DNA of 55,937 nucleotides from Prorocentrum cordatum (GCA_963575745.1 CAUYUJ010000124.1:62001-117937), one strand, 5' to 3'; positions 7,280 to 50,671 are shown, counted from the first letter of the stretch. The notes: generated by a model not told the origin, from the letters alone. Program-made: numbers and translations.

Positions 7280-7421
7280 ACTTGGCGGAACTGACTTCGT
7301 ATCAAGCCGAAAAATAGATAATGCGAGTTTGTCACTTGATACTGAGCGAAGCTCTGTCCTCGTAATCTGATCACAAATTTGCGTGACGAAAGCTGTGCGA
7401 GTGTCTCGGCGGTAACCTGGT

Positions 7422-7511
7422 GGGGTGAGACTTCGACTGCTCCCGATGCGTCCGCCCCCGTGCTTCCGACTAGGCTGGAAAGCAAGCGCAGTCGACCGCA
7501 AAGACCGCAAA
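7422..7511 (+). mobile_element. 90-bp 5'-truncated retroposon-like insert inside a HINE hairpin
   Basis: TSD aacctggt at 7414-7421 and 7512-7519; 3' tail (gaccgcaaa)x2. Confidence 0.75.
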
Positions 7512-7641
7512 AACCTGGTTGACGGTTTACCGCCAGCTCCCAGCTTCTAACTGGTGATCTCGGGTCAGATTTTTGAAGACTATGAGAGAATTGAAAGTCT
7601 TTTTGAGAACCAGTATTTTTCGCATACGCCGCGTTCGCCTG

Positions 7642-8692
7642 TAACTCGTAGAGCTTCCCTTAGCTAGTTGCTGGAAGCTTAAGAGTAATTCCGGCGCGCT
7701 GGAGGGCTAGTTGGCAAGAAAAATCTCGACGGACCTTTTGCTGATATTTGCTCGGTTGACAATGTTCTCGAAATTCAACAATTCGTTTGAGCTCTAATAT
7801 TTTGTCCCGTGATATTCGATCTTATTCCCGCTCGCCATCTTAATCTCAGCTCGATCGGCTTCTTTGTACTGCCAAAGAGCGTCCGGGCGGGATCGGCTGT
7901 TTCGAGTCATCTTGACAGGTGCTGTCGGTTTTCTGCACTTAACTCGAGCTGTAGGAGAGCTACAGAGCTGGTACGCACACGTAATCGATTCAGAATCATC
8001 AGGCGCGTTCGTCTGAAGCATCTAGGGGTCTGAACTCGGTCTGCTACTCAAGCTAGGTCCGCGAAACTATTCGTATTCTACCGATTTTTCTCGAGATGGT
8101 GATGAGTACCTTCACTCAACTCGAGCTGCAGATGAGCTTGAGAGCTCTTCGGCACAGCAATTGGAAGGAAATCATCAGGCGTGCTAGTCTGAAGTATCTA
8201 GACGCTTGAATTGGGTATGTTATGTGCGCGAAAGCCAAACAACTACTCATACTCTGCCATTTTCTGGTGATGGAATTGGTTTTCTTGACTTAACTCGAGC
8301 TGCAGATGAGCTCCAGAGCCCTTAGGCACAGCAATCGGAAGAGAATCATCAGGCGCACTATTTGAAAGTATCTAGACACCTGAACTCAGTCTGCTATCAG
8401 CGCTCGGGGTGAACAACTATTCGTACTCTGCTAATTTCTTGGAGATGGCATTGGTTTTCTTGGTTTTACTCGTGCTGCAGATGAGCTACAGAGCTGTTCA
8501 GCACAGCAAAGAGAAGAGAATCATCAGGGGCGCTAGTTGAATGTATCTAGACGCCTGAAATCAGTCTGCTATCAGCGCTCGGGCTGGAAAACTATTCGTT
8601 CTCTGCTAATTCTTTGGAGATGCTATATGGCAAGGAAGCTCTACGAGTCTCCCGGCGGCAACCAAGGTTGACGGTTTACCGCCGGCGCCCAG
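7642..8692 (+). mobile_element. Complete HINE family A copy
   Basis: Starts taactcgtagagcttccc with a 5' hairpin (agcttcc..ggaagct), has about 4 satellite units, and ends in subTIR+hairpin+cccag|t. Confidence 0.85.
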
Positions 8693-9187
8693 TGGTCACC
8701 GCCGGCTCTAGTTAAGCGACTTTTGGGGCCAGCGCATTCGAAGCGCCCAGAGAACCTTCAGGGCGCGCTGATCAGTCCGGGGGGCCTGGATCGATGCTGA
8801 AAAACCAATCGTGCGGCTCTGGCTTTTAATCTAAGGGCTCTCTTTTTCGGAATGAAAAGCTGGCGCCCGGAAGCTTTAGCGAAGAGGCCTCGGTTGAACA
8901 TTATGTTCTCGAAATTTAGTAATTCGTTTGAGATTTGTTTTTTCTGGCCCAGCTCTATGATCTGATTCCCGCTCGTAATCTTCATCTCAGGTCAACTGGG
9001 TGGATAGTAATACAGAGAGGCAGTGTAGCGCGCTTAGTGTGTGTTTTTTGTTCCCCACATGCTTCGTGGGGTTCTGGTTTTCTCCCCTGCCGCGCCGCGC
9101 CCGCGTCTCACCCACACCCGCCCTCCTCTCTCTTTATTCCTCCCCTCACTCACACACACACACACACTTCACTCTTCCCCCCCTCGT

Positions 9188-9324
9188 CACAGCACTGCTC
9201 AGCTCAGCTCAACTCACCTCAGCACAGCTCAGCACAGCTCAGCTCAGCACAGCACAGCTCGGCTCAGCTCAGCACAGCTCAGCACAGCCCAGCACGGCTC
9301 AGCTCAGCACAGCACAGCACAGCT
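9188..9324. repeat. Pentanucleotide microsatellite (CAGCA/CAGCT)n
   Basis: Direct reading. Confidence 0.92.
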
Positions 9325-10500
9325 CGTGGCACTTTCTCGACACCACAAGGGGTGCGCAGGGGTTGGTCTCTCAGCTCGGCCGCTATCCACGAAACTGGCG
9401 CAAAGCCTAGCAGGCGTGGCACTCTCTCGACACCAAAGGGGGTGGGCAGGGGGTGCTCTCTCAGCTCGGCCGCTATCCACGACACTGGCGAAAAGCCTAG
9501 CAGGCGTGGCACTTTCTCGACACCACAGGGGGTGCGCAGGGGGTGGTCTCTCACCGCGGTCCCTATCCACGACACTGGCGCAAAGCCTAGCAGGCGTGGC
9601 ACTCTCTCGACACCAAAGGGGGTGGCAGGGGGTGGTCTCTCAGCTCGGCCGCTATCCACGACACTGGCGCAAAGCCTAGCAGGCGTGGCACTTTCTCGAC
9701 ACCACAGGGGGTGCGCAGGGGGTGGTCTCTCAGCTCGGCCGCTATCCACGACACTGGCGCAAAGCCTAGCAGGCGTGGCACTTTCTCGACACCACAGGGG
9801 GTGCGCAGGGGGTGGTCTCTCAGCTCGGCCGCTATCCACGACACTGGCGCAAAGCTAGCAGGCGTGGCGACACCACAGGGGGTGCGCTCTCAGCGGGGTG
9901 GTCTCTCGACATTGCGCCTCTCAATCGACACTGGCGCATGGCAGGCGTGGTCTCTTATTGGCTAGCAGGCACGACATCACAGGGGGTGCGCAGGGGGTGG
10001 TCTCTCAGCTCGGCCGCTATCCACGACACTGGCGCAAAGGCTAGCAGGCGTGGCACTTGCTTGACACCACAGGGGGTGCGGAGAGGGTGGTCCCTCAGCT
10101 CGGCCGCTATCCACGACACTGGCGCGCAAAGTCTGGCAAGCGTGGCACTTTCTCGACACCACAGGGGGTGCGCAGGGGGGGGTCTCTCAGCTCGGTCGCT
10201 ATCCACGACACTGGCGCAAAGGCTAGCAGTCGCGGCACTTGCTTGACACCACAGGGGGTGCGGAGAGGGTGGTCCCTCAGCTCGGCCGCTATCCACGACA
10301 CTGGCGCAAAGCCTGGCAAGCGTGGCACTTTCTCGACACCACAGGGGGTGCGCAGGGGTGGGTCTCTCAGCTCGGTCGCTATCCACGACACTGTCGCAAA
10401 GCCTAGCAGGCGTGGCTAGTTCTCGACACCACAGCAGGGGGTGCGCAGGGGGTGGTCTCTCAGTTCGGCAGCTATCCACAACACTGGCGCAAAGCCTAGC
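9325..10500. repeat. 90-bp tandem repeat array, about 13 units
   Basis: cgtggc register at 9325, 9415, 9505 and 9595; unit cgtggcactttctcgacaccacagggggtgcgcagggggtggtctctcagctcggccgctatccacgacactggcgcaaagcctagcagg. Confidence 0.95.
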
Positions 10501-11095
10501 CGCGTCACAGCAATCAGATGGCAATCATCAGGCGCGCTACTAGACACCTGGACTCGGGCTGCTATCAGCGCAGACGCCGAAACACGATTCATACTCTGCT
10601 ATTTTTCTAAATGAAATTGGTTTTCTCGACTTATATCGAGCTGCAGGTGAGCTCCAGAGCTCTTAGGCACAGCAATCGGAAGAAATACATCAGGCGCGCT
10701 ATTTCAAAGTACCTAGACGCCTGAAGTCAGTCTGCTATCAGCGCTGGGGCTGAAACACTATTTGTACTCTGCTAATTTCTTGGAGATGGTATTGGTTTTC
10801 TTCACTTAACTCGCGCTGCAGATGAGCTACAGAGCTGTTTCGCACAGCAATCGGAAGGGAATCATCAGGGGCGCTAGTTCAAAGTATCTTGACGCCTGAT
10901 CTCGGTCTGCTAGCGCTGGGGCTGAAAAACTATTCGTACTCTGCTAACTCTTTGGAGATGGTATTGTTTTTCATGAGCAGAGAGCTGCAGATGATCAAGG
11001 AAGCTCGAGCTGCAGATGAGCAGGGAAGCTCTACGAGTCTCCCGGCGGTAACCAAGGTTGACGGTTTACCGCCGGCGCCCAGTCGTACTCTACTA

Positions 11096-12143
11096 AAACT
11101 CGTAGAGCTTCCCTTAGCTAGTTGCTGGAAGCTTAAGAGTACTTCCGGCGCGCCGGGGAGCTAGCTGGCAAGACTAATCTCGACTGACATTTTGATGACC
11201 TTTGCTCGGTTGACAATTATGTTCTCGAAATTCAACAATTCGTTAGAGCTCAAATATATTTTCCTGAGATTTTCGATCGTCTTCCCGCTATAATCTCAGC
11301 TCGATCGGGTACCTATTACTGCCAAAGAGCGTCGCGGCGGGATCGGCTGTTTCGAGTCATCTTGACAGGTGCTGTCGGTCTCCTGTACTTAACTCGAGCT
11401 GTAGGAGAGCTACAGAGCTGGTGCGCACACGTAATCGATTCAGAATCATCAGGCGCGTTCGTCTGAAGCATCTAGAGGTCTGAACTCGGTCTGCTACTCC
11501 AACTAGGTCCGCGAAACGATTCGTATTCTACTGATTTTTTCCGTGATGATGATGAGTTTCTTCACGTAACTCGAGCTGCAGATGAGCTTGAGAGCTCTTC
11601 GGCACAGCAATCGGACGGAAATCACCAGGCACGCTAGTCTGAAGTATATAAACGCTTGGATTGGGTCTGTTATGAGCGCAGAAGCCGAACAACTAGTCAT
11701 ACTCTTCTATTTGTCTGGTGATGGAAGTGGTTTTCTTGACTTAACTCGAGCTGCAGATGAGCTTCAGAGCTCTTAGGCACAGCAATCGGAAGAGAATCAT
11801 CAGGCGCGCTATCTGAAAGTATCTAGACCCCTGAACTCAGTCTACTATCAGCACTCGGGCTGAACAACTCTTCGTACTCTGCTAATTTCTTGAAGATGGT
11901 ATTGGTTTTCTTGGTTTTACTCGTGCTGCAGATGAGCTACAGAGCTGTTCAGCACAACAATGGGAAGGGAATCATCAGGGGCGCTAGTTAAATGTATCTA
12001 GACGCCTCAAATCAGTCTGCTATCAGCACTGGGGCTGAAAAACAATTCGTTCTCTGCTAATTCTTCGGAGATGGTATATGGCAAGGAAGCTCTACGAGTC
12101 TCCCGGCGGTAACCAAGGTTGACGGTTCACCGCCGGCGCCCAG
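11096..12143 (+). mobile_element. Complete HINE family A copy, close relative of 7642-8692
   Basis: Same termini, same unit order and high visible identity. Confidence 0.85.
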
Positions 12144-14510
12144 TTTTTTTTGAGACGTTGATGAGTTTATTCACTTAACTCGAGCCTCAGATGAAGTAAA
12201 GGGCTCTCCGGCACAGCAATCGGAAGGCATTGACCAGCACGTGCTAATCTAAAGAAAACTAGTACTCTCCAATTTCTTTGGAGATGATGATGGTTTTCTT
12301 CAATTAACTCGAGCAGCAGATGAGCAACAGAGCTGTTCGGCTCAGCAATCGGGAGGAAATCATCAGGCGCGATAGTTCTAGGTATCTAGACGCCTGGAAT
12401 CAGTCGGCTATCAGCACTGGGGCTGAAACGCTATCCGTACTCTGTTATTTTTCTCGATATGGTGATGATTTTCTTCACTCAACTCGAGCTGCAGATCAGC
12501 TACAGAGCTATGCGGCACAGCAATCGACAGACAATCATCAGGCGCGCTACTAGACACCTGGACTGGGCCTGCTATGAGCGCAGAAGCTGAACAATTATTC
12601 ATGCTCTGTTCTCTTTGGAGATGGAATTGGTTTTCTTGACTTAGCTCGAGCTGCAGATGAGCTCCAGAGCTCTTAGGAACATCAATTGGAAGGATCACCA
12701 GGCGCGCTATTTCAAAGTATCTAGACGCCTGAAATCAGTCTGCTATCAGCGCTCGGGCTGAACAACTCTTCGTACTCTGCTAATTGCTTGGAGATGGTAT
12801 TGGTTTTCTTGACTTAACTCGCGCTGCAGATGAGCTACAGAGCTGTTGAGCACAGCAATTGGGAGGGAATCATTAGAGGCGCTAGTTAAAAGTTTCCTGC
12901 TTGAAATCAGTCTGCTATCAGCGCTCGGGCTGAAAAACTATTCGAACTCTGCTAATTCTTTGGAGGGTAGTATAGGTTCTCATGATTGAACTCGACCTGC
13001 AGATGAGCAGGGAAACTCTACCAGTCTTCCGGCGGTACCAAGATTGACGGTTTACCGCATGGCGCCCAGTTGGTAAAAACATCTCTACGGAAGTTGTTTT
13101 GTTTTTGTTGTGTTCTCCTGTTAAAATTCGATTCCTCGAAATTCAACAATTCTTTGGAGCTCTAGTATATTTTCCTGCGATATTCGATCTTATTCCCGCT
13201 CGCTTCTCAATCTCAGATCGATCGGATACCTATTACTTTTCGAGATGGTGATGCTTTTCTTGAGTCGAGCTTCAGATGAGCTACAGCTATTCGGCACAGC
13301 AATGGGAAGAAAATAAAAGGCTCGCTAGTTGAAAGCATCTAGAGAGGCCTGAAATCAGTCTACTATCAGCGCTGGGGCCGAAAAAATATCCGTACTCTGT
13401 TAACTTTTTAGAGATGGTGACTGGCGCCGGCGGTGAACCGTCAACCTCGTCACCGCCGGGAACAACCTCGTAGAGCTCCCTGCACCCGTCTGAAAGCTCA
13501 GGATCGAAGCGGAGAGCTTCTGAAAGCTTTCCTAGAAAAATATCAAATTCCGATTTTTCAGAGTCTACATGAAGTCGGCCCCGGGAAATCAACTAATACT
13601 AAAACTGACTCTAGAGAGCTCAGCTGCTGAGAGAGCGAAGTTTACATGCCAATACTTGACGTAAGAATCTGCTTTCTGAAATGAATTATCAAGTATCTCA
13701 AATCTGAGCAAAACCGACCCAAAGTCACCACTTTGTCCTTTCTGGTCGGGTCGACCAACTAGCTACACCCCGCGCCGGAATTCCTCCAGCTCATGGCAGA
13801 GGTGCTTTTCCCTCGCTCCTCGTTGTTCTCCACATCCTCCTCCATGGAACCGCGCCCTGGCGCGCGCAATGCGAGATTGCCGCGCCCGCATTGCCCGAGG
13901 AAGCTCTACGACCCCCAGCATAAACACAAAACTGGCGCCGGCGGTGAACCGTCAACATGGTCTTTTGCGTCTTTTGCGAAGGCCGGTTCGAGCTCCCATG
14001 GGAGCAGGCCTAAACACAAAGAACCTAAACAGCGAAGCTGTACAGGAAGACAGCGAAGCTGCAAAGATTTAAACAGAGGTGCATCAAACAGCGAAGCTGT
14101 ACAGATATGCACAAGACTGCCAATACACTAGAATACAAAACAACAAAGATGATGAAAGAAGCTGTACAAGACAGCAAAAAGCAGTGAGAGACCATACTGT
14201 AACCACTGGCTTATACAGCGATTACCGTCTCAACACCACTGAGAAAAACACGAAGCTCAGAGAACTGAGATACCGAGTGCGCTTTGACACCATACCTAAG
14301 TGAAACCTGGTCGTGTGAAACCATGTCTAAGTGAAACCTGGTCGTGTGCTTTGACACCATGCCCATACAGCTGGTCTCGCTCATGCAGGCGAGACACACC
14401 TCCGCACGAAGGGCGAACACGGCAATATAGATCACTAACACAAACAGAAGCATGTGCAATCACTCAATCACTTAATCAATTGGGTGTCCGACCTTGGCCG
14501 CCAACTCGCG

Positions 14511-15821
14511 CTAGTTCATTACATTTCGACGCATCCATTCATCCTGAAATTTCAACACGTCGTACATAGCTTTCGTAACGCTTTTAGGAACGAGTCCGTG
14601 GTGCATAAAGTCTCTGATATCCGTCGACATATGGGTCATATTGGCTATCGGGCCAAGTCTCGCGCGCTCCCAAAGAAGCGCTTCAAGCAACACAGGTTTT
14701 TCCTCGGCACCCCAGGCCATAAGGCGATACACCGTGGCAGCCGTGAAAGAGTGAACGAGCTTTACCCAGCCAGACTTGCGGAAACAGTATTTCCTGATCC
14801 TTAAATTGCACACCAACTGATACAAATAGTCTGCATGGCCACGTTTCTCCTCGTCCTCCGTCACTGCTGTACTCACAACTGCATTAGATAAACTCCCAGT
14901 CGTGGAACTCCCCAGTGCATCAGATGAACTCCAAACTGCGGAACTCCCAACTGCAGAACTCCCAGCCACAGAATCTGACCGAATCCTGTGGTCAGCCTCC
15001 GTTGAACTCCCAACTGCAACAGCAGAACTCCCAGTCATGGAACTCCCGACTGCATCAGCTGAACTCCAAACCGCGGTACTCCCAACTGCAGAACTCCCAG
15101 CTGTTGAACTCCCAACTGCATCAACAACTGCATCAGCGGAACTCCGAACTGTGGAACTTCCTACTGCACTCCGAACTGTGGAACTCCCGACTGCACTGGA
15201 ACTCCCAACTGCAGAAGCATCACCCTGATCAGCGCGCGCTCGATGACGCTCCTCCTTCTCCTCCTCACCAACAAAGAGAACACAAAGACCAGTCTGAGTC
15301 CCACACGCAATGTGAGCACAGGGATCTGTCTGAGTCCCACAATCGGAACACTGCGAACACGAAGAGTTGCCAGCCAATTCAACAGCATCCATATCAGTCT
15401 GCGTTCCACAAGTGTCCTCAACCCACTCCTCTTCCTCAGAATCGTCCGAGCAGAAATTCCGATAATATCTGGGCGCGCAAATGCCGCGCGAACAAGGCAC
15501 GACGGATCTGGCCCCCCGAGCCGTGGACCATAAACGATACCTGGCACGTTTCGCCCGCAGGCGGCGCAACTTCGATTGAGAAACTTTGACACCATGCCCA
15601 TACAGCTGGTCTCGCTCATGCAGGCCAGACTCACCTCCGTACGAGGGGCGAACACGGTAATATAGATCACTAACACACACTTCGACCGACAAACGAGCAG
15701 ACAAACAAGCGAGAAACTCGGAAGTAAACAACGCCGTATCTGTCCAATATGAAGCAACAAAATCCGCGCCTGACAACTCAGATGAAACAAACTCCATATA
15801 TAAAACGGACTCGCTCAACAA
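14511..15821 (-). CDS. Hypothetical 436-aa protein with Ser/Ala/Val-rich internal repeats (cargo or ORF1-like)
   Basis: Single long ORF between SL and tail; acidic DDSEEEE patch, CGTQTD repeats and AVGSST repeats. The real start may be the ATG of MEFVSSE (about 15797). Confidence 0.6.
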   Translation of the reverse strand: MLSESVLYMEFVSSELSGADFVASYWTDTALFTSEFLACLSARLSVEVCVSDLYYRVRPSYGGESGLHERDQLYGHGVKVSQSKLRRLRAKRARYRLWSTARGARSVVPCSRGICAPRYYRNFCSDDSEEEEWVEDTCGTQTDMDAVELAGNSSCSQCSDCGTQTDPCAHIACGTQTGLCVLFVGEEEKEERHRARADQGDASAVGSSSAVGSSTVRSAVGSSTVRSSADAVVDAVGSSTAGSSAVGSTAVWSSADAVGSSMTGSSAVAVGSSTEADHRIRSDSVAGSSAVGSSAVWSSSDALGSSTTGSLSNAVVSTAVTEDEEKRGHADYLYQLVCNLRIRKYCFRKSGWVKLVHSFTAATVYRLMAWGAEEKPVLLEALLWERARLGPIANMTHMSTDIRDFMHHGLVPKSVTKAMYDVLKFQDEWMRRNVMN

Positions 15822-16060
15822 GAAGAAGAAGGCAAATCACAAGCAATAACTAGATGGACAGTTGAGATAACCAAGGAAAATGCTGTTCCAACGATACTCA
15901 GACAATCTCAACAATAATGTGCACTCCGACGACGATGGGCGTGAACAGGCCTGCGACAATCAATGAGAGTGTACGGTACTCAGGCAAAACAGACACTGAA
16001 GCACCGTGTACGGTAAAGAGAACCAAACACCAGGCACGGCACAATGCCGCTCGAGGAGGC

Positions 16061-16098
16061 CTTGAGCCTTGAGCCAAATCTTGATCCAAAATGGCTAC
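16061..16098 (-). other. Dinoflagellate spliced leader plus two relic SLs
   Basis: Minus strand GTAGCCATTTTGGATCAAG-ATTTGGCTCAAG-GCTCAAG versus DinoSL DCCGTAGCCATTTTGGCTCAAG (18/19 match, then 11/12 and 7/7). Confidence 0.9.
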
Positions 16099-17733
16099 CT
16101 CGTAGAGCTCCTTGCACCTGTTAGAAAGCTCGGGATGCGGAGAGCTTCTGGGAGCTTTCTGGAAAAACGTCAAATTGAGATTTTCGGAGTCAAGATAAAG
16201 TCGGTTCCCGGGAGTGAACTGGCACTAAAACTGGCTCTAGAGAGCTGAGCTGCTGGGGAAAAAAGTTTATGGGAGCAGGCGGTAAACCGTCAACCAGGTT
16301 ACCGCCGGAAGCCTCGTAGAGCTGTTTTCTCGTGCGGCACTGCTCGGAACACACGCAAGAAGCTTCGTCAAGCGTGGAAAGCTCGAAAATATTATTTTCT
16401 GATTTCATCGAAAGTCGGTTCCGCCAAGTGATTTGATAGTAATACTGCAGCTACAGACTACTAGAGGTGCAAAAAAAACTAGTTCTTGAAACGAATGTTG
16501 GAATACTGGAATCCGGCGGTAAACCGTCAACCACGACACCGCCAGGAGCTTCGTAGAGCTCTGTTCTCGCGCGGCGCTGCTCGGAGCACACGAAACATGC
16601 TTGCTCAAGCGTAAAGAAGAAACTCGAAAATTAAGTTTTTATTTTGTATCTTCGTTTCGTTCACCTAGCTCGAGTGCCAGACCGAGTTCAGACCTCTCGA
16701 TGCGAGAAAAGAACGCGCCGGGTGATGCTCGATCGTTCTATATGCGTACCAGCTCTGAAGCTATTCTAAATCTTCAGTTAAGGGAAACCGACAGCACATC
16801 TCAAGATCACTCCTACAATTCGAATAAGGTCGCGCCTCTAGCTCGAGTAGCAGACCGAGTTCAGACCTCTCGATGAAACAGAGAAACGCTCCTTAAGATA
16901 CTGGATCAGGTTCTGCAACCTAGATCTCGACTTAAGTACAGAAAACCGTCAAGGCGTGTCAAGATCACTCAAAACGGCCGACGATTCCAGCAAGTGTTTT
17001 AATAGTAATATTGCAGCTACGGACCTGAGAATTTGACTGGCAGACGCGGCATAACCCACTACAGGTGGGGAAAACACTGGTTCTGAAAACGAATTTCAAA
17101 TTTTCTAGAAAGATAGGAAAACCGATCCCAAGTCAACACTGTCTCTCAAGGTCGGGTCGGCCAATTGGCGCCGGCGATGAACCGTCAACCTGGTCACCGC
17201 CGGGAACCTCGTAGAGCTCCTCGCTCGCGTGAGATTGCTCAGAATCGAAAGAGATTCCTTCTGGAAGCATTTCTTGAAAGAATCAAAATTCATATTTTTC
17301 ATGTCGACGTGAAGTTTTCGCCAAGTGTTTTGATAGTAAAAGTGCGCCTAGACAGCTCATATTAAGACGCACAGGCTCCTATAGTCGTCTACAGGTGCGA
17401 AAAAATCTGCCAAAATGAATTGTAAAATATATTTGAAATCTTAGGAAAGCGGGCAAAGTTGTCACATCTTCTTTTCTGGCCGGGTCGAACTGGGAACCGG
17501 CGGTAAACGGTCAATCCGGGGCTCTCGTAGAGCTCTGTTCTCGCACGGCGCTCCTCGGTATAGATGAAGGAAAATCTCGAGCAAGACCCAAAAAACTCGA
17601 AAAACCCGTTTTAATGTCTTTATCCAAAGACGGTTCCCCCAAGTGTTTTAATAGTAATACGCTACGGACCTGAAAATTCATTGGCGGACGCGGCATAAGA
17701 GCTACGAGGTACTAGCTCTCCAGCGCCCCGGAA

Positions 17734-18130
17734 CTGGCGCCGGCGGTGAACCGTCAACCTGGTCAGCGCTGGGAACCTCGCACAGCTCCTTTGACGCGTG
17801 AGTGCTCAGAGTCGAAAGAGAGAGCTTCTCGAGGCATTTCTCAAAACATTGAACATTGATTTTTTTGATAGGCGAGATGAAGTTTGTTGCGCCAAGTGTT
17901 CCGATGGTAAATGTGCGCCTACAGATCTCATATTAAGACGCAGAAGCCCTCATAGTCGTTTACAAGTGCGAAAAATCTGGTTCATCAAAATGAATTGTCA
18001 AATATCTTTCAAATCTTAGCAAAACCGACCCAAAGTTATCACATCTTCTTTTCTAGCCGGATGGACCAACTAGCTCCATCCCGCGCCGGAATTCCTCTAG
18101 CTCATCCAGAACGAAGAACTCCACGAGGTA
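17734..18130 (-). mobile_element. HINE family B (about 400 bp, no satellite)
   Basis: Hairpin 3' end at left and 5' end gaagaactccacgaggta at right; body similar to 30294-30693. Confidence 0.75.
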
Positions 18131-18532
18131 CTTGAAACCGGCGGTAAACCGTCAACCAGATTACCGCCGGGAACCTCGTAGAGCTCTTTTCTTGCACGGC
18201 GATCTTCGAAATTCATGAAGAAAGCTTCTTGAGCGAGAAACAAAAAACTCGGAAAATCACGTTTTTCTGTTCTTATCCAACGCCGGTTCCGCCAAGTGTT
18301 TTGATAGTAATACTGGGACCTGAGAATTTGACTGGCAAACGCGGAATAACCCACTACAGGTGCGAAAAATCTGGTTCCTCAAAATGAATTGTCAAATATC
18401 TTTCAAATCTTAGCAAAACCCAACCAAAGTTGTCACATATCTCTTTTGGTCGGGTCGGCCAACTAGCTCCACCCCGCGCCGGAATTCCTCTAGCTCATCG
18501 ACTGGCACCGGCGGTCAACTGTCAACCTGGTC

Positions 18533-20822
18533 TTTTGCGTCTTTTGCGAAGGCCGGTTCGAGCTCCCATGGGAGCAGGCCTAAACACAAAGAACCTAAAT
18601 AGCGAAGCTGTACAGGAAGACAGCGAAGCTGCAAAGATTAAAGCAGAGGTGCATCAAACAGCGAGGCTGTACAGATATGCACAAGACTGCCAATACACTA
18701 GAATATAACACCAAAACAGTGAGACGCAGTAACCACTGGTTCATACAGCGACCACACGAGAAGCAGTGAGAGACCATACAGTAACCACTGGTTTATACAG
18801 CGATTACCGTCTCAACACCACTGAGAATGCACAAGGGATTAAAGATCAGAATGCAGGTAAGAAATGCAAACTGAATTATGAACACACACACACAAACAGA
18901 CAAAGTGAATTATGAACAGGCAACATACGGAGTGGATATGCAAATTACAGAATGGATATGCAATGAACTGATAAGTTGGAAGCTCACTGAACTCATGACA
19001 TTAAACGTGCAATGAACGCATGAGTTTGGAAATTCAACTCAGGAAACTTGCCTTCCAACATCTGTTGAAGCACGCCCAGAAACTTGCATTCAAACATCTG
19101 CGAAAGAGACTCGCATTCCAACATCTGCTGAAGAAACGCCTGTCCCAACTGAACCGAGAACTCGGCGCGTATCTTGCAACGTCCATTGGCTGAAATCCTC
19201 CTTCCAAAAACTTGCATGAGCATGTTCGCCCAGAGTTCTAGGCCCAACTTGCACCTCAATGAGGTCTTGCAGGATGCCCTCAACAACGGTATCGCGCGTT
19301 GCCCTTTGCCTGGTGAAACCGTGAATTTCTGATATTTTCAATCTGGTACACATATAGAACACACCAAAAAGAATGTCGTGATTGAGGCTATACCCGTAAC
19401 CGAGCTTCCGGCACTGAGTCTTAGAGGCAACTGGAGTGCCGAACTTTCTGCCCAGACATCTGGCGAGACGAAACACGTTTTGTGACGTAAAGCTCATGCG
19501 AAGCATGTCATCTATCAAGTACCTTCGCCCGTGCACTCCAACCTCAATTACGAACTGATCAAACTGCTCCATCTTATCTGGCACCCTAACCTCAGATCGA
19601 TTCACTCGCGCGCAAGTTGTTGCACTACCAGCTGAAGAGACTCGCATTCCAAACTCCGCATCTTGTTCTGCTGAAGAAACTTGCAATCCAACATCTGCTG
19701 AAGAAACTTGCATTCCAACGTCTGTTGAAGCACCCCCAGAAACGTGCATTCCAACATCTGCTGACGAAACATGCATGCCAACATCTTGTTCTGCTGAAGA
19801 ACCTTGCAATCCAACATCTGCTGAAGAAACTTGCATTCCAACGCCTGTTGAAGCACTCCCAGAAACGTGCATTTCAACCTCTGCTGAAGAAACATGCATG
19901 CCAACATCTTGTTCTGCTGAAGAAACTTGCAATCTCACATTTGCTGAAGAAACTTGCATTCCGACGCCTGTTGAAGCACTCCCAGAAACGTGCCTTCCAA
20001 CATCTGCTGAAGAAACATGCATGCCAACATCTGCTGAAGAAACTTGCGTTCCCACGTCTGCTGAAGAAACTTGCATCGCAACATCTGCTGAAGCACTCCC
20101 AGAAACTTGCATTCCAACATCTGCTGAAGAAACCTGCATGCCAACATCTGCAGTAGGAACGTGCATTCCAACAGCTGCCGAAGAAACTGGCGCCCCCACA
20201 TTTTGCCGAGGGGGAGACTTTGCCAAGCTTGCATAGGGATCTTCCGTCCTGGAACCACTCATTTCATGTTCCTCCTTTCCACAAATGGCATCAAAAAGAT
20301 AAATCGTACTCCCTGCAGAGAAGCCCGAATGCGCGAGACCACATGAAGCAGATGCCGCCTCCTCCTCCTCCTCCATATCGTCAAAAACAGCAGCTGAGCT
20401 ACCCTCGGAAGTAGAATCGAGATATCGAAAAATATCGGGGAGCATATATCTTCTGCACACAAACGCCCTGCCGCAACTCTGATCCATATTTAATATACCT
20501 CGGAGCCACAATTCTGAATTCCAATGCGCCAAACAATGAGATCACGCGCGGCGTCTCTCTGGCTCGCTCCAATTCGGCGACTCTCTTTTGGAGCGTCCTC
20601 ACTGTTGAGCAAAGCCAATTGACAACTTCTGAAGAAACGACCATATGAGAACAAAGAGATACACAAATTCGACAATCAATAAGAGTGTACGGTACTCAGG
20701 CAAAACAAACACTGAAGCACCGTGTACGGTAAAGAGAACCAAACGCCAGGCACGGCACGATGCCGCTCGAGGAGGCCTCCGACGGGCCAGGTCGCCGCTG
20801 AGATCCCGAGGAGGGACAGCAG
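18533..20822 (-). mobile_element. Retroposon-like insert in HINE hairpin with 10-bp TSD
   Basis: caacctggtc is duplicated at 18523-18532 and 20823-20832. Removing the insert restores a normal hairpin+subTIR. Same tail as 13963-16098. Confidence 0.88.
19090..20644 (-). CDS. Hypothetical repeat-rich protein, probably frameshifted near 20430 (cargo or ORF1-like)
   Basis: 480-aa ORF 19090-20532 with SSADVGMQV repeats. The overlapping upstream ORF MVVSSEVVNWLCSTVRTLQKRVAELE..IYAPRYF parallels the sister ORF's MEFVSSE..ICAPRYY. Confidence 0.55.
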
Positions 20823-21721
20823 CAACCTGGTCACCGCTGGGAACCTCGTAGAGCTTCTTCCACGCGTTAGAGTGCTCAGAGTCGAAGAAGAGAGCTTCTG
20901 GAGGATTTTCTCAAAAATTGAGTATTCATTTTTTTCATGTCGAGATAAAGTTGGTTGCGCCAAATGTTAGGAAAGTGCGCCTAGAGAGCTCATATTAAGA
21001 CGCAGAGACCCTCGCAGTCGTCGACAGGTGCGAAAAATCTGGTTTCTCAAACGAATTGTCAAACATCTTTGAAATCTTACCAAAACCGACCCAAAGTTAT
21101 CACATCTTCTTTTCTGGTCGGATCGACCAACTAGCTTCACCCCGCGCCAGAACTCGGCGCCGGCGATAACCGTCAATCTCAATCGATGAGGTGTGCTTAC
21201 AAGCTCTGTATCTGTCTTGTATCTCGAGTTAAGTCCAATATACCAACAACGCATATCAAGAACTCGAAATAGCCGGTCCCGCCGGTGAGCTTTTTTGCAG
21301 TACAAGGTACCTGATCGAGCTGAGATCAAGATGGCGCGCGGGAATGAGATCGAAAATCATAGGAAAAAATAGTAGAGCTCAAACGAATTGAGGATTCTCG
21401 AAAAGAAAATGTTTAACCGACCAATAATCACTAAAGGTCCGTCGATATTTTTCTGGCCAACTAGCTCCCCGGCGCCCTGGAATTACTAGCCCTCTTCTGG
21501 CCAACTATCTCTAGCGTGCATTTGCTAGCGTCCAAAAACCGGAGAGCAAAGGGTAACTTGGTAGCGTCCAACTGGCGCCGGCGGTAAACCGTCAACCTGG
21601 TCACCGCCGGGAACCTCCTCGTAGAGCTCCTTTCACGCGTGAGTGCTCAGAGTCGAAAGAGAGAGCTTCTCGAGGCATTTTCCGAAAAATTGAACATTCA
21701 TTTTTGTTCATGTCGACACAA

Positions 21722-30693: not shown

Positions 30694-31726
30694 CTGGGCG
30701 CCGGCGGTAAACCGTCAACCTTTCTTACCGCCGGGGGACTCGTAGAGCTTCCTGACAATATATAATGTGGAAAAGAATTTCAGAGAACGACTAGTTTTTC
30801 AGCCCAAGCGATTATAGACTCTCAAGATGACTCTAACAAAACAAACGAACAGTTTCCAATCGAGCTCGAGTATGAAACCGAGTTCAGACCTCTGAATGCG
30901 ACAGGCGGACGCGTCTGATGTCTGCGGATCGATTCCTGTGATTACCAGCTCTGCAGCCCCCCATACAGCCTGAGTTAAGTGCAGAAAACCGAGAGTACCT
31001 CTCAGGATGACTCGAATAATACAACAGTTTCGCGAATCTCGTTCGAGCAGCAGACCGAGTTCCGAGCTCTCGGTTCGACGAACGGACGCGCCTGATGTCT
31101 CGAAATCGATTCCTGTGACCAGCAGCTCTGTAGCCCTCCCCCAGCACGATTTAAGTACAGAAACCGAGAGCACTTCTCAAGATGACTCGAACAATACCAA
31201 TAGGTTCGCGAACCTAGCTCGGGGAGCAGGCCGAGTTCAGAGCTCTTGATTCAACAGACGAACGCGCCTGATAATTCTCAATCGATTTCTGTGATTATCA
31301 GCTCTGTGGCTGCCCTACAGATCGAGTTAAGTACGAAAAACCGAGAGCGTCTGCTACAATGACTCGAATAATACGAATAGGTTTGCGACCCTAGCTCGGC
31401 TAGCAGACCGAGTTCAGACCTCTGGATTCAACAGGCGAACGCGCCTGATCATTCTGAATGCATTAGCTGTGCTGACCAGCTCTGTAGTTGTCCTGAAGCT
31501 CGAGTTATCTTGAGAAAACCGACAGCGCGTATCAAGATGACTCGAAACGGCAGTTCCCGCCTGCCTGCTTTTTGACCTCCAAAGTTACCCGATTGAGCTC
31601 AGATCAAGATGGCGAGCGGGAAAAAGATCGAATATAATGGGAAAAAATACTAGAGCACAAACGAATTGTTGAATTTCGAGAACAAAATTTTCAACCGACC
31701 AAAAGTCAGCAAAAGGTCCGTCGAGA

Positions 31727-32771: not shown

Positions 32772-33190
32772 TTTTTCTTGCCAACTAGCTCTCCAGCTCC
32801 CCGGAATTACTCTTAAGCTTCCAGAAACTGGACGCCGGCGGTAAACCGTCAACCTTGGTTACCGCCGGGAGACTCGTAGAGCTTCCAGCTCGACTAAAGT
32901 TGAGAACACCGAGCAGCTACCAGCATTCCGACTCATAGTGACTATTTTGTGACCTCTCAATGCGACTGGCGGACGCGTCTCATGTCTGCGAGTCGACTCC
33001 TGTCATTACCAGCCCTGCAGCCCCCCTACAGCCCGAGTTAAGTGCGGAAAACCGACAGCACCTCTCAGGATGACTCGAACAATACAGTAGTTTCGCAGAC
33101 CTAATTCAGGCAGCAAACCGAGTTCCGAGCTCTGGATTCGACAGGCGGACGCGTCTGATGTCTTTGAATCGACTCCTGTGACCACCAGCA

Positions 33191-34227
33191 CTGGGCGCCG
33201 GCGGTAAACCGTCAACCTTGGTCACCGCCGGGAGACTCGTAGAGCTTCCTAACTCGACTTCAGTTGAGAAAACAGACAGCACTTACCAGCAGTGAATAGT
33301 TTTGACCTCTGAATGCGAGAGACGGACGCGTCTGATGTCTGCGAATCGACTCCTGTCAGTACCAGCTCTGCAGCCCCCCTACAGCCCGAGTTAAGTGCAG
33401 AAAACCGACAGCACCTCAGGATGACTCGAACAATAGGAATAGGTTTGCAGACCTAGTTCGGGCAGCAGACAGAGTTCAGAGCTCTCTATTCGACAGGCGG
33501 ACGCGCCTGACGTCTCCAAGTCGATTCCAGTGATTACCAGCCATGCAGCCTCCCTACAGCCCGAGTTTAAGTCCAGGTAACCGAAAGCATATTGCAAGCG
33601 ACTCGAACTATACGAATAGTTTTGCGATTCTAGATCGGGCAGCAGACCGAGTTCAGGGCTCTGGATTCGACAGACAAACGCAACTGATGATTCTGAATTG
33701 GTGCCTGTGGATATCAACTCTACACCTGTCCTATAGCTCGAGTTAAGTGCAGAAAACCGAGAGTTTCTGTCAAGATGACTCGAATAATACGAACAGGTTT
33801 GCGGACCTAGCTCGGCTAGCAGACCGACTCCAGACCTCTGGATTGAACAGGCGAACGCGCCTGATCATTCTGCATGCATTAGCTGTGCTTACAAGCTCTG
33901 TAGCTGCCCTAGAGCTCGAGTTATGTTCAGGAAACCGTGAGCGCATATAAAGATGACTAAAAACGGCCGTTCCCGCCACCGTGCTTTTCGATAGTAAAAT
34001 TCACACGATCGAGCTGAGATCAAGATGGCGAGCAGGAATAAGATCGAATATCACGGGAAAAAATACTAGAGCTCTAACGAATGGTCAAATTTCGAGAACG
34101 AAATTTTCAACCGACCAAAAGTCACCAAAAGTTCCGTCGAGATTTTTCTTGCCAACTAGCTCTCCAGCGCTCCGGAATTACTCTTAAGCTTCCAGCAATA
34201 GCTTGCTAAGGGAAGCTCTACGAGTTA
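33191..34227 (-). mobile_element. Complete HINE family A copy inserted cleanly into a satellite unit
   Basis: Flanks accaccagca | ctgtagc rejoin the unit seen near 24155. No TSD. Confidence 0.88.
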
Positions 34228-34348
34228 CTGTAGCTCCCCTCAGCGCGAGTTGAATGAAGGAAACTGAGAACACTTCTCAAGATGGTTCGACCAATACGAA
34301 TAGTTTCGCGATTCCCAGCTCCCCGGAATTACTCTTAAGCTTCCAGGA

Positions 34349-34751
34349 ACTTGTAAGCGTCCAAAACCCGGATAGCGAAGCGAAGCGCGAAACGCCGCAC
34401 GGGGATCTCTGCCGTGCCGCTTGTAACGATGCGCGGGACGCTGGAAACCTCGCAGGAGACGCTTGCAGGGGCGCCGTTTACGATGCGTGGGGCCCTGCAA
34501 AGCGCGCAAGGAAGATCTGCCTAGGAGCCTGGAAGAACTGCCGAAGCTCTTCCGAAGCTCTGCCGAATCGCTTCGCGCACCCTGGAGCCACGCGTATTGG
34601 GAAACGCTAGGAAGCCACGCTCCCGGACCCGCTGCCGGTTCCGACAACCTGCTGCGAGAATCGTGGACCGGCGGAGGTGGGCGTGTCTCCGTCACCACCC
34701 ACCTCCGGCTTCTTATCTGAAACCCTCAGCTCTCCAAGGAGCTATCCGGGA
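34349..34751 (-). mobile_element. Family C non-autonomous element with different asymmetric TIR
   Basis: IR cccggatagc (34367-76)/gctatccggg (34741-50). It interrupts the family A sequence agcttccag|aataacttgc. Related end fragments lie near 21520-21570 and 24243-24275. Confidence 0.6.
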
Positions 34752-34780
34752 ATAACTTGCTGAGGGAAGCTCTACGAGTT

Positions 34781-37700
34781 ACTGGGCGCCGGCGGTAAAC
34801 CGTCAACCTTGGTTACCGCCGGGGAACTCGTAGAGCTTCCAAGCTCGACTTAAGTTGAGAAAACCGACAGCACCTACCAACATTCTGACTCATAGTGAAT
34901 ATTTGTTGACCTCTGCATGCGACCAGCGGACGCGTCTGATGTCTGCGAATCGACTCCTGTCATTACCAGCCCCGCAGCCCCCCTACAGCCCGAGATCAGT
35001 GCAGAAAACCGACAGCATCTCTCAGGATGACTCGAACAACACAATAGTTTCGCGAACCTAGTTCGGGCAGCAGACCGAGTTCCGAGCTCTGCATTCGACA
35101 GGCGGACGCGCATGATATCTTTAAATCGATTCATTACAACCTGCACTGCAGCCCCCCAGCACTGCAGCCCCTCTCAGCGCAAGGTTAAGTGAAGAAAACG
35201 AGAGCCTTCTCAAGGATGCTCGACATACGGAATAATTTCCGGCGAATTCTAGATCGGTCCAAGAGACCGAGTTTCAGACTTATGATCACAGACAAACTCA
35301 ACTGACGATGATGAATCAGTTTTCTGTAAATATCAGCTCTGTAGCTGTCTTACAGCTCGAGTTGAGTACAGAAACCGAGAGTTTCTGTCAAGATGACTCG
35401 AATAATACGAATAGGTTTGCGGACCTAGCTCGGCTCACAGACCGAGTTCAGACCTCTGGATTCAACAGGCGAACGCGCCTAATCATTCTGAATACGATAG
35501 GTGTGCTTACCAGCTCTGTATCTGCCCTACAGCTCGAGTTAAGTACAAAATACCGACAGTTTTTCTGTCTAGATCACTCGATAATCGAATGGTTTGACAG
35601 GGGAACCTAGATCGGCTTCACCGACCGAGTTTCAACCTCCGGATTCAACAGCGAACGCGTCTAATCAATTCTGAATGCGATAGGTGTACTTACCAAGCAC
35701 TGTAGCTGCCCAGAGCTCGAGGTTAAGTACAAAATACCGACAACGCGTATCAAGATTACTCGAAACGGCCGATCCCGCCAGTGTGCTTTTTGGCAGTAAA
35801 AGGTACCCGATCGAGCTGAGATCATATGGCGAGCGGGAATAAGATCGAATATCACGGGAAAAAATACTAGAGCTCTAACGAATGGTCAAATTCCGAGAAC
35901 AAAATTTTCAACCGACCAAAAGTCACCAAAAGTTCCGTCGAGATTTTTCTTGCCAACTAGCTCTCCAGCGCACCGGAATCTCTGATGTCTGCGAATCGAC
36001 TCCTGTCATTACCAGCCCCGCAGCCCCCCTACAGCCCGAGATCAGTGCAGAAAACCGACAGCATCTCTCAGGATGACTCGAACAACACAATAGTTTCGCG
36101 AACCTAGTTCGGGCAGCAGACCGAGTTCCGAGCTCTGCATTCGACAGGCGGACGCGCATGATATCTTTAAATCGATTCATTACAACCTTCACTGCAGCCC
36201 CCTCTCAGCGCAAGTTAAGTGAAGAAAACCGAGAGCACTTCTCAAGATGACTCGACCAATACGAATAATTTCGCGATTCTAGATCGGTCAGAAGACCGAG
36301 ATCAGAGCTATGGATTGAACAGACAAACTCAACTCACGGTTATGAATCAGTGTCTGTAAATACCAGCTCTGTAGCTGTCTTACAGCTCGAGTTGAGTACA
36401 GAAACCGAGAGTTTCTGTCAAGATGACTCGAATAATACGAATAGGTTTGCGGACCTAGCTCGGCTCACAGACCGAGTTCAGACCTCTGGATTCAACAGGC
36501 GAACGCGCCTAATCATTCTGAATACGATAGGTGTGCTTACAGGCTCTGTATCTGCCCTACAGCTCGAGTTAAGTACAAAATACCGACAGTTTCTGTCTAG
36601 ATCACTCGAATAATACGAATAGGTTTGCGGACCTAGCTCGGCTCACAGACCGAGTTCAGACCTCTGGATTCAACAGGCGAACGCGTCTATTCATTCTGAA
36701 TGCGATAGGTGTGCTTACCAGCTCTGTAGCTGCCTAGAGCTCGAGTTAAGTACAAAATACCGACAACGCGTATCAAGATGACTCGAAACGGCCGATCTCG
36801 CCACAGTGCTTTTTGGCCTTCAAAGTTACCCGATCGAGCTGAGATCAAGATGGCGAGCGGGAATAAGATCGAATATCACGGGAAAAAATACTAGAGCTCT
36901 AACGAATGGTCAAATTTCGAGAACAAAATTTTCAACCGACCAGTCAGCAAAGTTCCGTCGAGATTTTCTTGCCAACTAGCTCTCCAGCGCGCCGGAATTA
37001 CTGGGCGCCGGCGGTAAACCGTCAACCTTGGTTACCGTCGGGAGACTGGTAGAGCTTCCAAGCTCGACTGAAGTTGAGAAAACCGACAGCACCTACCAAC
37101 ATTCTGACTCATAGTGAATATTTTTTGACCTCTGAATGCGACAAGCGGACGCATCGGATGTCTGCGAATCGACTCCTGTCATTACCAGCCCCGCAGCCCC
37201 CCTACAGCCCGAGGTCAGTGCAGAAAACCGACAGGATCTCTCAGGATGACTCGAACAATACAATAGTTTCGCGAACCTAGTTCGGGCAGCAGACCGAGTT
37301 CCGAGCTCTGGATTCGACAGGCGGACGCGCGTGATCTCTTTAAATCGATTCATTACAACCTGCACTTCGAGCCCCCTCATCAGCGCAAGTTAAGTAAGAA
37401 AACACCGAGAGTCACTCTCAAGATGACTCGACCCAATAACGAATAATTCGCGCAGACCTAATTCGGTCAGAAGACCGAGTTCTGAGCTATGGATTCGACA
37501 GACAATACTCAACAGACGACTATGAAATCAGTTTTTCTGTAAATATATCGCTCTGTAGCTGTCTTCAGCTCGAGTGAGTACAAAAACCGAGAGTTTCTGC
37601 AAGATGACTCGAATAAATACGAATAGTTTGTCGGACCTACTCGGCTACACGACCGAGTTCTACCCTCTGGATTCAACAGGCGAACGCGCCTAATCATTCT

Positions 37701-39205
37701 GAATACGATACGTGTGCTTACCAGCTCTATATCTGCCCTACAGCTCGAGTTAAGTACAAAATACCGACAGTTTCTGTCTAGATCACTCGAATAATACGAA
37801 TAGGTTTGCGGACCTAGCTCGGCTCACAGACCGAGTTCAGACCTCTGGATTCAACAGGCGAACGCGTCTATTCATTCTGAATGCGATAGGTGTGCTTACC
37901 AGCTCTGTAGCTGCCCTAGAGCTCGAGTTAAATACAAAATACCGACAACGCGTATCAAGATGACTCGAAACAGCCGATCTCGCCACAGTGCTTTTTGGCC
38001 TTCAAAGTTACCCGATCGAGCTGAGATCAAGATGGCGAGCGGGAATAAGATCGAATATCACGGGAAAAAATACTAGAGCTCTAACGAATGGTCAAATTCC
38101 GAGAACAAAATTTTCAACCGACCAAAAGTCACCAAAAGTTCCGTCGAGATTTTTCTTGCCAACTAGCTCTCCAGCGCACCGGAATCTCTGATGTCTGCGA
38201 ATCGACTCCTGTCATTACCAGCCCCGCAGCCCCCCTACAGCCCGAGATCAGTGCAGAAAACCGACAGCATCTCTCAGGATGACTCGAACAACACAATAGT
38301 TTCGCGAACCTAGTTCGGGCAGCAGACCGAGTTCCGAGCTCTGCATTCGACAGGCGGACGCGCATGATATCTTTAAATCGATTCATTACAACCTTCACTG
38401 CAGCCCCCTCTCAGCGCAAGTTAAGTGAAGAAAACCGAGAGCACTTCTCAAGATGACTCGACCAATACGAATAATTTCGCGATTCTAGATCGGTCAGAAG
38501 ACCGAGATCAGAGCTATGGATTGAACAGACAAACTCAACTCACGGTTATGAATCAGTGTCTGTAAATACCAGCTCTGTAGCTGTCTTACAGCTCGAGTTG
38601 AGTACAGAAACCGAGAGTTTCTGTCAAGATGACTCGAATAATACGAATAGGTTTGCGGACCTAGCTCGGCTCACAGACCGAGTTCAGACATCTGGATTCA
38701 ACAGACGAACGCGCCTAATCATTCTCAATACGATAGGTGTGCTTACCAGCTCTGTATCTGCCCTAGAGCTCGAGTTAAGTACAAAATACCGACAGTTTCT
38801 GTCTAGATTACTGGAATAATACGAATAGATGCAGACCTAGCTCGGCTCACAGACCGAGTTCAGACCTCTGGAGTCAACAGGCGAACGCGTCTATCCATTC
38901 TAAATGCGATAGGCGTGCTTACCAGCTCTGTAGCTGCCCTGGAGCTCGAGTTAAGTACAAAATACCGACAACGCGTATCAAGATGACTCGAAACGGCCGA
39001 TCTCGCCACAGTGCTTTTTGGCCTTCAAAGTACCCGATCGAGCTGACATCAAGATGGCGAGCGGGAATAAGATCGAATATCACGAAAAAAATACTAGAGC
39101 TCTAACGAATGGTCAAATTCCGAGAACAAAATGTTCAACCGACCAAAAGTCACCAAAAGTTCCGTCGAGATTTTTCTTGCCAACTAGCTCTCGAGCGCAC
39201 CGGAA
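34781..39205. repeat. Tandem duplication of about 2.2 kb
   Basis: 34781-36999 is similar to 37000-39205. The same odd junction (caccggaatctctgatgtctgcg) occurs at about 35971 and 38177. Confidence 0.88.
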
Positions 39206-39479
39206 TTACTCTTAAGCTTCCAGCAACTAGCTTAGGGAAGCTCTACGAGTCGTTACTCTAAAGTTTCCAGCAAAAACTTGCTAAGGGAAGCTCTACGAGT
39301 TAATAACTAGGAACCGGCGGTAAACCGTCAACCAGGTTACCGCCGGGACTCTCGTAGAGCTCTTCCTCACACCCCTGCACCTACAGACCTGGAAATTTTA
39401 CTGGCAGACGCGTCTTAACTCACTACATGTGCGGAAAATCTGCTTTCTCAAATACCAAATATTCGCAAAAGCACGCAAA

Positions 39480-39830
39480 CTGGCGCCGGCGGTGAACCGT
39501 CTCGTAGAGCTCCTTTCACGTGTAAGAGTGCTCAGAGTCAGAAGAGAGCTTCTGGAAGCATTTCTCGAAAAAAGAAAAACATCATTCTTTGTGTCGACAT
39601 AAAGTTGGTTGCTCCAAGTGTTTTGATAGTAAAGGTGCGCCTACAGAGCTCATATTAAGACAGAAGAAAGTTTCAATGCTAATGCTCAGAGTGAAAATCT
39701 GCTTCCATCTTTCAATAAATTGCAAAACCACGCCAAAGTTATCACATCTTCTTTTCTGGTCGGGCCGACAAACTAGCTCCCCTGCGCCAGAATTCCTCAA
39801 CTTCATCGATACCGAAGAGCCTGCGAGGTA
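39480..39830 (-). mobile_element. HINE family B copy (hairpin partly deleted)
   Basis: Body matches 30294-30693; 5' end gaagagcctgcgaggta. Confidence 0.7.
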
Positions 39831-39898
39831 AGTTACCACTTTGTCCTTTCTCGCCGGGTCGACCAACTGGGCGCCGGCGGTAAACCGTCAACCTGGTT

Positions 39899-40140
39899 TT
39901 TGAGTTTGAGTCAGGGCGCGGACAGCTGTGACAGCTGAGCCCTAAGACTCCCAAACGGAGCACAGGGTAGCTGGAGAGGGCAACTCTTATCATCACACTG
40001 CCGAGCCACTGAGGCACAGGCAACGGAATAGGATGCAGGAACAAGGAAAAGGATGCAATACAACATGTGAAAATGTAAAGGTGTTGGAGAGCTCCAAGCA
40101 AGATGAAGTGAGTCAGCTGCTTGGATGAAAGATGCTACCC
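39899..40140 (-). mobile_element. 3' end of another retroposon-like insert at the same hairpin site, cut off by the autonomous Helentron
   Basis: Minus strand ...ctgactcaaactcaaa joined to aaccaggttgacgg; unique sequence that ends at the Helentron 3' terminus. No 5' TSD is visible. Confidence 0.55.
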
Positions 40141-40144
40141 AAAA

Positions 40145-50668: not shown

Positions 50669-50671
50669 GAG

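Follow-up and report, generated by a model that had tools for sequence, protein, structure and literature searches.

Retroelements without long terminal repeats (LTRs) that insert at a fixed site are described for several targets, transposons among them (PMC4640811). R1, R2, NeSL, CRE and Utopia are site-specific non-LTR elements of ribosomal RNA, spliced-leader or U2 genes (PMC4640811). Long interspersed nuclear elements (LINEs) of the Tx1 clade, together with the short interspersed nuclear elements (SINEs) that depend on them, target DNA transposons: according to the published description, Tx1 inserts into Tx1D, Tx1-Mar and SINEU into Mariner-N4_AMi, and Tx1-9_AMi into Harbinger (PMC4494074). 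Here we describe four inserts in a stretch of 55,937 nucleotides from the dinoflagellate Prorocentrum cordatum (GCA_963575745.1 CAUYUJ010000124.1:62001-117937; the whole stretch is called the window hereafter), all of which join their host at the same bond of the 3'-terminal hairpin of Helentron-associated elements (HINEs). We consider it likely that these inserts are retroposons, namely cDNAs that target-primed reverse transcription has inserted at a single, specific bond of the HINE hairpin, and that a dedicated system serves several non-autonomous families at this site.

By analogy, the Tx1-clade LINE/SINE systems are the closest known case and would be the same kind of system, the likeness lying in non-LTR retroposons at a preferred position of a multicopy transposon, with autonomous and non-autonomous families on one target (PMC4494074). 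The Tx1 cases described there concern cut-and-paste transposons, whereas here the cis-acting 3' hairpin of a rolling-circle element is hit, in a dinoflagellate host, by RNAs with a trans-spliced leader, tail units of 6-9 nt and diverse open reading frames (ORFs) between common ends. The arrangement looks like a new case in which one mobile element is aimed specifically at another. With R1, R2, NeSL, CRE and Utopia, as they are described (PMC4640811), the inserts would have in common a single bottom-strand nick (putative here) in a conserved multicopy sequence, an invariant orientation, 5' junctions that vary and an overlap of the 3' ends with the target; those elements target host RNA genes, whereas the target here is itself a selfish element, and neither an RLE- nor an APE-type endonuclease could be assigned to the inserts. 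Dinoflagellate retrogenes resemble one of our inserts, which has a spliced leader and stacked leader relics at its 5' end; the published accounts, as far as they describe these retrogenes, define no integration site or mechanism for them (PMC5585692; PMC6050394), and a review states that the element mediating their retroposition is unknown, with LTR elements favoured (PMC6050394). In contrast, the junctions described below speak for target priming at a specific site, and the tail is a repeat and not poly(A). Stringent-type LINE/SINE pairs such as CR1, L2 and UnaL2 combine a conserved 3' region with a few short units able to pair with the nicked target; the inserts are like them in their conserved 3' region and short repeat tail, and would differ from them in that those pairs are not site-specific. 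A literature search returned no report of retroelements in Helentron or Helitron terminal hairpins; repeat annotation that accompanies the Prorocentrum genome paper (PMC10666404) may tell whether the insert families are already catalogued.

The target hairpin and the insertion bond

The window has a base composition of 55% GC and is dense in non-coding repeats whose anatomy is that of published HINEs, for which 12-15-bp subterminal inverted repeats (subTIRs) and a short 3' palindrome located 8-35 bp from the 3' end have been described (PMC4067079). Both features were found: the subTIR GCTCTACGAG occurs in 45 copies on both strands (at most one mismatch), upstream of hairpins and inverted at 5' ends, and the palindrome follows the stem-loop layout CCGGCGGT(G/A)ACC / loop / GGT(T)(C/T)ACCGCCGG. 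Tandem arrays of ~175 bp inside the elements are the central repeats expected of non-autonomous HINE copies, and the copies diverge ~10 nt past the stem, after ..CCAGT. Folded as DNA, the HINE hairpin reaches -10.5 to -13.9 kcal/mol; in an intact example (17165..17206, minus strand), the stem counts 12 bp with one bulge and, in the 5' arm, positions 8 and 9 flank the insertion bond.

Shuffles would give 0.04 occurrences of the hairpin motif RACCWKGTTGAC, and the window holds 10. When up to three mismatches were allowed in a looser probe for its 3' half, GTTGACGGTTTACCGCC, 34 copies were retrieved. The 5' arm ..CGGCGGT immediately precedes 29 of them, a single copy bears an internal deletion, and the remaining four are interrupted. 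These four breaks fall at one bond, between ..GGCGGT and (G/A)ACC, 6 nt before GTTGAC and at stem positions 8/9 of the 5' arm, and all four inserts have the orientation of their host. The survey of 34 copies bears out what the earlier note, made from the DNA alone, had reported: four inserts with three unrelated 3' sequences at the same nucleotide and in host orientation. Interruption affects 4 of the 13 hairpins with 6 nt before GTTGAC and none of the 20 with 7 nt (exact test, ~0.02); many of the 20 are segmental duplicates, so that this is no more than a hint at a sequence requirement.

Junctions of the four inserts

Insert 1 (7422..7511, plus strand) is 90 nt long and follows a host HINE 3' region (7390..7413, plus) made of a degenerate subTIR GCTGTGCGAG and the 5' arm ..CGGCGGT. 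It is bordered by a perfect 8-bp target-site duplication (TSD), AACCTGGT, with the left copy at 7414..7421 and the right copy at 7512..7519 (both plus), the latter running into the remaining hairpin TGACGGTTTACCGCC, and it ends in a tail of two GACCGCAAA units (7494-7511). Insert 2 (13963..16097, minus strand; 2.1 kb, tail at 13963-13978) is followed downstream by the loop and 3' arm of the host hairpin, GACCATGTTGACGGTTCACCGCCGGCGCCAGT (13931..13962, minus), and abuts at its other end the host subTIR GAGCTCTACGAGG (16098..16110, minus), 11 nt of the 5' arm, TTCCCGGCGGT, being deleted. Insert 3 (18533..20822, minus strand; 2.3 kb, tail at 18533-18548) lies between the two copies of a perfect 10-bp TSD, GACCAGGTTG, the 5' copy at 20823..20832, preceded by an intact subTIR and 5' arm, and the 3' copy at 18523..18532 (both minus). 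What remains of insert 4 (39899..40140, minus strand) ends in two CTCAAA units (39899-39910); its true 5' end is lost because the 3' end of a different Helentron cuts in.

The 3' junction is therefore fixed, and the 5' junctions vary between an 8-bp TSD, a 10-bp TSD and an 11-nt deletion. The two TSDs had been noted before with these lengths and both prove perfect, while the first reading of two junctions had to be revised: insert 2 has no TSD but a target deletion, with the leader starting at 16097 and the host stopping at 16098, and the 5' flank of insert 4 is not a HINE 5' arm but the 3' end of that other Helentron. The latter (40141..40186, minus strand) comprises a subTIR at 40174-40186, a hairpin TCCACGGC..GCCGTGGA at 40150-40173 and a T-run, GCACATTTT, down to 40141.

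The tail at each of the four 3' ends is a 6-9-nt unit that is present twice and closes with AAA(A), as the earlier description of short duplicated A-rich tails had it; the tails of inserts 2 and 3 are CGCAAAAGACGCAAAA, with the unit CGCAAAAGA when read into the target. Within the window, these tail motifs are confined to the four insert junctions. At all four, the tail unit and the start of the target overlap by 2-4 nt, which is the observed part of an earlier proposal that tail units could anneal to the nicked target; the pairing itself is putative. The insert ends are unrelated to each other, with neither LTRs nor terminal inverted repeats, and, like the A-rich short-repeat 3' tail, this is a feature of target-primed retroposons. 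No further copy of any insert was found elsewhere in the window.

Inserts 2 and 3 are kin by their ends only, with 3' blocks of ~290 nt at 89.6% identity (13963-14245 in insert 2) and 5' blocks of 109 nt at 96% (15954-16062); between these common ends, the middles and ORFs are unrelated. The 3' block also contains, in both inserts (13985-14110 and 18555-18680, minus strand), several copies of the palindrome ACAGCTTCGCTGT, with a 5-bp stem and a 3-nt loop, which may be protein-binding hairpins in the RNA. In Rfam searches, nothing in the window reached gathering level, only chance-level matches were seen in 13900-20900, and no ribozyme was found.

RNA origin of inserts 2 and 3

The dinoflagellate spliced leader (DinoSL) is given as DCCGTAGCCATTTTGGCTCAAG (PMC5585692), and stacked leader relics are described as a mark of repeated rounds of retroposition (PMC5585692; PMC6050394). 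The first 18 nt of insert 2 match leader positions 5-22 with one mismatch (16080-16097), a match that is unique in the window and absent from 100 shuffles. Two truncated relics come next, ATTTGGCTCAAG (16068-16079) and GCTCAAG (16061-16067), so that the leader segment as a whole spans 16061..16097 (minus strand), and the leader is joined to GCCTCCTCGAGC.., the start of the 109-nt block in common with insert 3. At the homologous point, insert 3 carries 46 other nucleotides that end in AG, that is, at the leader-joining point of insert 2; this unspliced 5' segment would look like an untrimmed primary transcript with its trans-splice acceptor. From the leader in one copy and the AG acceptor in the other, it follows that the family passes through RNA, and we read the 5' edge of insert 2 as the 5' end of a mature trans-spliced transcript and insert 2 as its cDNA. 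A DinoSL relic at the 5' end was seen in insert 2 only: inserts 1 and 3 lack one, and insert 4 has lost its 5' end. No poly(A) remnant is present, and the defined repeat that forms the tail is the same in two independent copies.

These junctions bear directly on an origin at the DNA level, either by duplication of a single ancestral insertion or by read-through capture by a Helentron. HINE arrays are in part segmental duplicates (34776-37002 versus 36995-39210, 93%), which would lend such a history some plausibility. Inserts 2 and 3, checked for the single ancestral insertion that the earlier note had raised as an alternative, differ in both host flanks and in their 5' junctions (a deletion in one, a 10-bp TSD in the other), so they are independent events. 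Read-through capture cannot produce TSDs made of hairpin sequence, an insert that begins with a spliced leader must have had an RNA intermediate, and the three families have no common sequence. Already contradicted by the anatomy of the junctions, a DNA-level origin is in our view highly improbable.

The insert reading frames and their relatives

The ORF of insert 2 (P0001; 15797-14514, minus strand) has 441 codons and that of insert 3 (P0002; 20541-19093, minus strand) 483 codons with 123-bp tandem repeats; neither has a Pfam match. P0001 has 15 relatives, eight named as Prorocentrum cordatum, one from a transcriptome collection and the rest metagenomic, and P0002 has eight; the named homologues come from Prorocentrum cordatum, and each ORF is one member of a multicopy family. 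Members of the insert-2 family share an invariant basic motif, KVSQSKLRRLRAKR.RYRLW..APRYYRNFC.DDSEEEEW, around which they are mosaics. In their alignment (P0003-P0017, alignment A1), an invariant basic/acidic core of ~65 residues precedes modules that differ from copy to copy by shuffling, repetition or replacement, as though recombination had accompanied retroposition. Within insert 2, a 94-bp direct repeat (94.7%; 14349-14442 and 15584-15677) gives, in its downstream copy, a second, partial ORF core. One family protein searched in the ESM Atlas returned no usable match.

Contigs assembled from the read runs X1, X9, X2 and X8 cover parts of the insert-2 body at a likeness of at least 85%, and the family therefore exists in other data sets. 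One X8 contig leads from 14108 to 17193 with 23 other letters between, possibly a ~170-nt copy beside a HINE 5' arm, and was not counted, its shorter side having 22 letters against a threshold of 31. Joints in X9 from 13950-13952 to 17184-17187 may be empty sites or simply other HINE copies. In X8, summed depth is far higher over the insert than over the HINE parts; contig depth cannot rank expression and no claim is drawn from it.

It could be argued that no dedicated specificity is involved and that ordinary dinoflagellate retrocopies, which would occupy many kinds of site genome-wide, are merely biased into HINE hairpins by region or structure. Retrogenes with leader relics are reported as very common in dinoflagellates, at more than 20% of genes (PMC5585692), the ORFs of inserts 2 and 3 do look like gene families, and the window is unusually dense in HINEs. 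Such retrocopies would not be expected to meet their target at one phosphodiester bond and in one orientation four times out of four, to end in defined repeat units, identical in two independent copies, instead of poly(A), or to hold unrelated ORFs between the same 5' and 3' ends. We give this explanation a slim chance; it was ranked low, as was the DNA-level origin, because both fit the junctions poorly.

A candidate reverse transcriptase

The earlier note had stated that the window holds no reverse transcriptase (RT), and a Pfam scan likewise detected none in the 90 ORFs that it covered, out of 150 reaching 110 residues; a tblastn search with P0026 revealed no RT remnant in the window either. 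P0026 is a protein of 1399 residues on a 4465-bp metagenomic contig, whose ORF runs off the contig, and was found as a longer relative of the insert-2 ORF. Its residues 34-161 are 79% identical to the N-terminal domain of that ORF, its residues 67-110 match both copies of the 94-bp repeat of insert 2, and after the N-terminal domain comes an RVT_1 match (E 5.9e-6, 26.6 bits), the best PDB matches being to LINE-1 ORF2p (E ~1e-3). P0026 may possibly be a relative of the LINE-type enzyme that serves the inserts.

The RT part of P0026 has 1076 relatives at E <=0.001. Weak N-terminal matches to APE-type endonucleases were seen in 4 of the 20 long proteins (at least 870 residues) among 23 scanned relatives, and in the closest full-length ones, P0027 and P0028, the LQE..SDH motifs of APE-type endonucleases can be recognised by eye; the Pfam family Exo_endo_phos matches P0028 weakly (E 0.05) and P0027 not at all. 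A similar Gly/Pro-rich segment (..ARPIAPP.GGHSPQS.GTS...IPGGGG.PH) recurs in P0026 and P0028, and its place with respect to the RT differs between the two proteins, which suggests a small mobile insertion translated in frame.

Hairpins outside the window

Metagenomic sequences were searched with the probe ACCWGGTTGACGGTTYACCGCC for the 3' half of the hairpin, and at least 119 stretches matched. Of the 129 matches listed, 127 were suitable for evaluation. The CGGCGG arm lies immediately upstream in 120 of these (at most one mismatch) and is degenerate in seven, and none of the 127 shows an interruption, a repeat tail or an insert. None of inserts 1-4 was detected in the 117 metagenome loci. The loop and 3' arm, 22 nt together, are identical in the 129 copies, which lie in 118 distinct contexts, both AT-rich and GC-rich, and a subTIR like GCTCTACGAG precedes 112 of the 127. 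Judged by sequence, this cis element of marine protist Helentrons is remarkably conserved, and the interruptions appear particular to this genome or lineage. In prokaryote genomes, the tail pattern matched 13 times without the hairpin after any of the matches, which we attribute to chance; viral contigs gave no match.

Host Helentrons in the window

A Helentron-like coding region (43657..55935, minus strand) is split over several reading frames and contains, in order, a weak DUF6570 match, a P-loop and PIF1 helicase (49632-50671; PIF1 E 4e-11), an APE-type endonuclease (46366-46902; Exo_endo_phos E 4e-7) and a UCH protease (43657-46362). The order helicase, endonuclease, protease on one strand is the coding layout of Helentrons; a Rep domain was not detected in Pfam and PDB searches. 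This element, at 43.6-55.9 kb, has its own 3' end, the one that cuts into insert 4 (40141-40186), with a hairpin unlike that of the surrounding HINEs.

Two other HINE 3' ends on the minus strand are incomplete. At 39510, the subTIR joins ACGGTTCACCGCC directly, 5' arm and loop being gone, and at 17533 most of the 5' arm and the loop are deleted; decay or a footprint is possible in both. A 90-bp tandem array of 13 copies (84% matches) lies at 9325-10500, between blocks of HINE satellite.

Discussion

The fixed 3' junction, the overlap between tail and target, the variable second-strand cuts and the RNA 5' end upstream together form an anatomy that fits target-primed reverse transcription. Under the mechanism that we propose, the bottom strand would be nicked opposite the bond between T and RACC, and the nicked 3' end (..GGTC or ..GGTT) would pair with the (G/A)AC(C) that opens each RNA tail unit. 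Reverse transcription would then be primed at a tail unit, and the second strand would be cut imprecisely, at +8, +10 or -11. The copies in the window would be non-autonomous, carrying unrelated ORFs as cargo between common ends and no RT of their own, and a LINE-type enzyme encoded elsewhere would supply the RT. A dedicated site-specific system is favoured because all three tails contain the first nucleotides of the target.

Several points weigh against this reading. The case for site specificity comes from four junctions, all within one window of 56 kb, and no RT or endonuclease has been linked to the 3' ends of the inserts. The RVT_1 score of P0026 is below the Pfam cut-off (26.6 against 29.6 bits), and no endonuclease is detectable in this protein. 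P0026 is also 99.75% identical over 401 residues to the RT-less P0013 and diverges from it exactly where the RT starts, so that P0026 may be a 5'-truncated LINE nested in a family member, or a chimeric gene model, and not the family master. RNA folds upstream of the four tails are not clearly more stable than shuffles (z -0.7 to -2.6), and the 5' truncation attributed to insert 1 is unsupported for a 90-nt insert that has no parent copy in the window. Three families with unrelated 3' sequences at one bond would moreover be unusual if each needed its own recognition. The interpretation of the earlier note as a whole is thus partly supported: its retroposon reading agrees with the single bond and orientation, the variable TSDs, the deletion, the tails and the leader, and the element it had foreseen, with a dedicated endonuclease and an RT and sharing the 3' ends of the inserts, stays hypothetical.

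Some of these points lend themselves to another explanation, in which priming is opportunistic. The bond would be nicked or exposed by the Helentron Rep, by its APE-type endonuclease or by processing of the extruded hairpin, and an RT-bound RNA with slight 3' complementarity would use the 3'-OH independently of any endonuclease of its own. That unrelated 3' ends meet at one bond would then be expected; the bond lies within a stable 12-bp stem, the Helentron in the window does encode an APE-type endonuclease, and the only RT-bearing relative is precisely the one devoid of a detectable endonuclease domain. Rep proteins of the Helitron type cleave at the element terminus, here ~10 nt beyond the hairpin, and not within the stem, which speaks against this explanation. 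Against it also stand the tails, since each repeat unit of all three holds the first nucleotides of the target, suggesting adaptation, the absence of interruption among the evaluable metagenomic hairpins, although those elements presumably also transpose, and the APE domain that the closest full-length RT relatives appear to have. We hold opportunistic priming to be unlikely, and a dedicated system at the hairpin remains the reading that we prefer.

A broader idea may be entertained, if with little confidence, namely that Helentron-type hairpins are a general landing pad for dinoflagellate retroposition, where the LINE-derived endonuclease of the Helentron or hairpin processing opens the bond and leader-capped RNAs whose short tails match it are copied in. 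Were this doubtful idea true, the massive formation of retrogenes in dinoflagellates, for which the mechanism is stated to be unknown (PMC6050394), would be tied to rolling-circle transposons, and the insert junctions would map the cleavage site of a Helentron endonuclease that has so far been without function.

As regards the dedicated system, the hairpin is the signal that a rolling-circle element needs at its 3' end, and splitting it probably inactivates the 3' signal of the HINE copy. Near-invariant across marine metagenomic contexts, the hairpin offers a stable target comparable to rDNA. With TSDs, a fixed 3' junction and a putative pairing of tail and target, the inserts give the first junction-level evidence on how leader-tagged RNAs are integrated in a dinoflagellate. 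If the pattern holds genome-wide, it would be a clear-cut example of a selfish element that homes to a second one and probably disables it.

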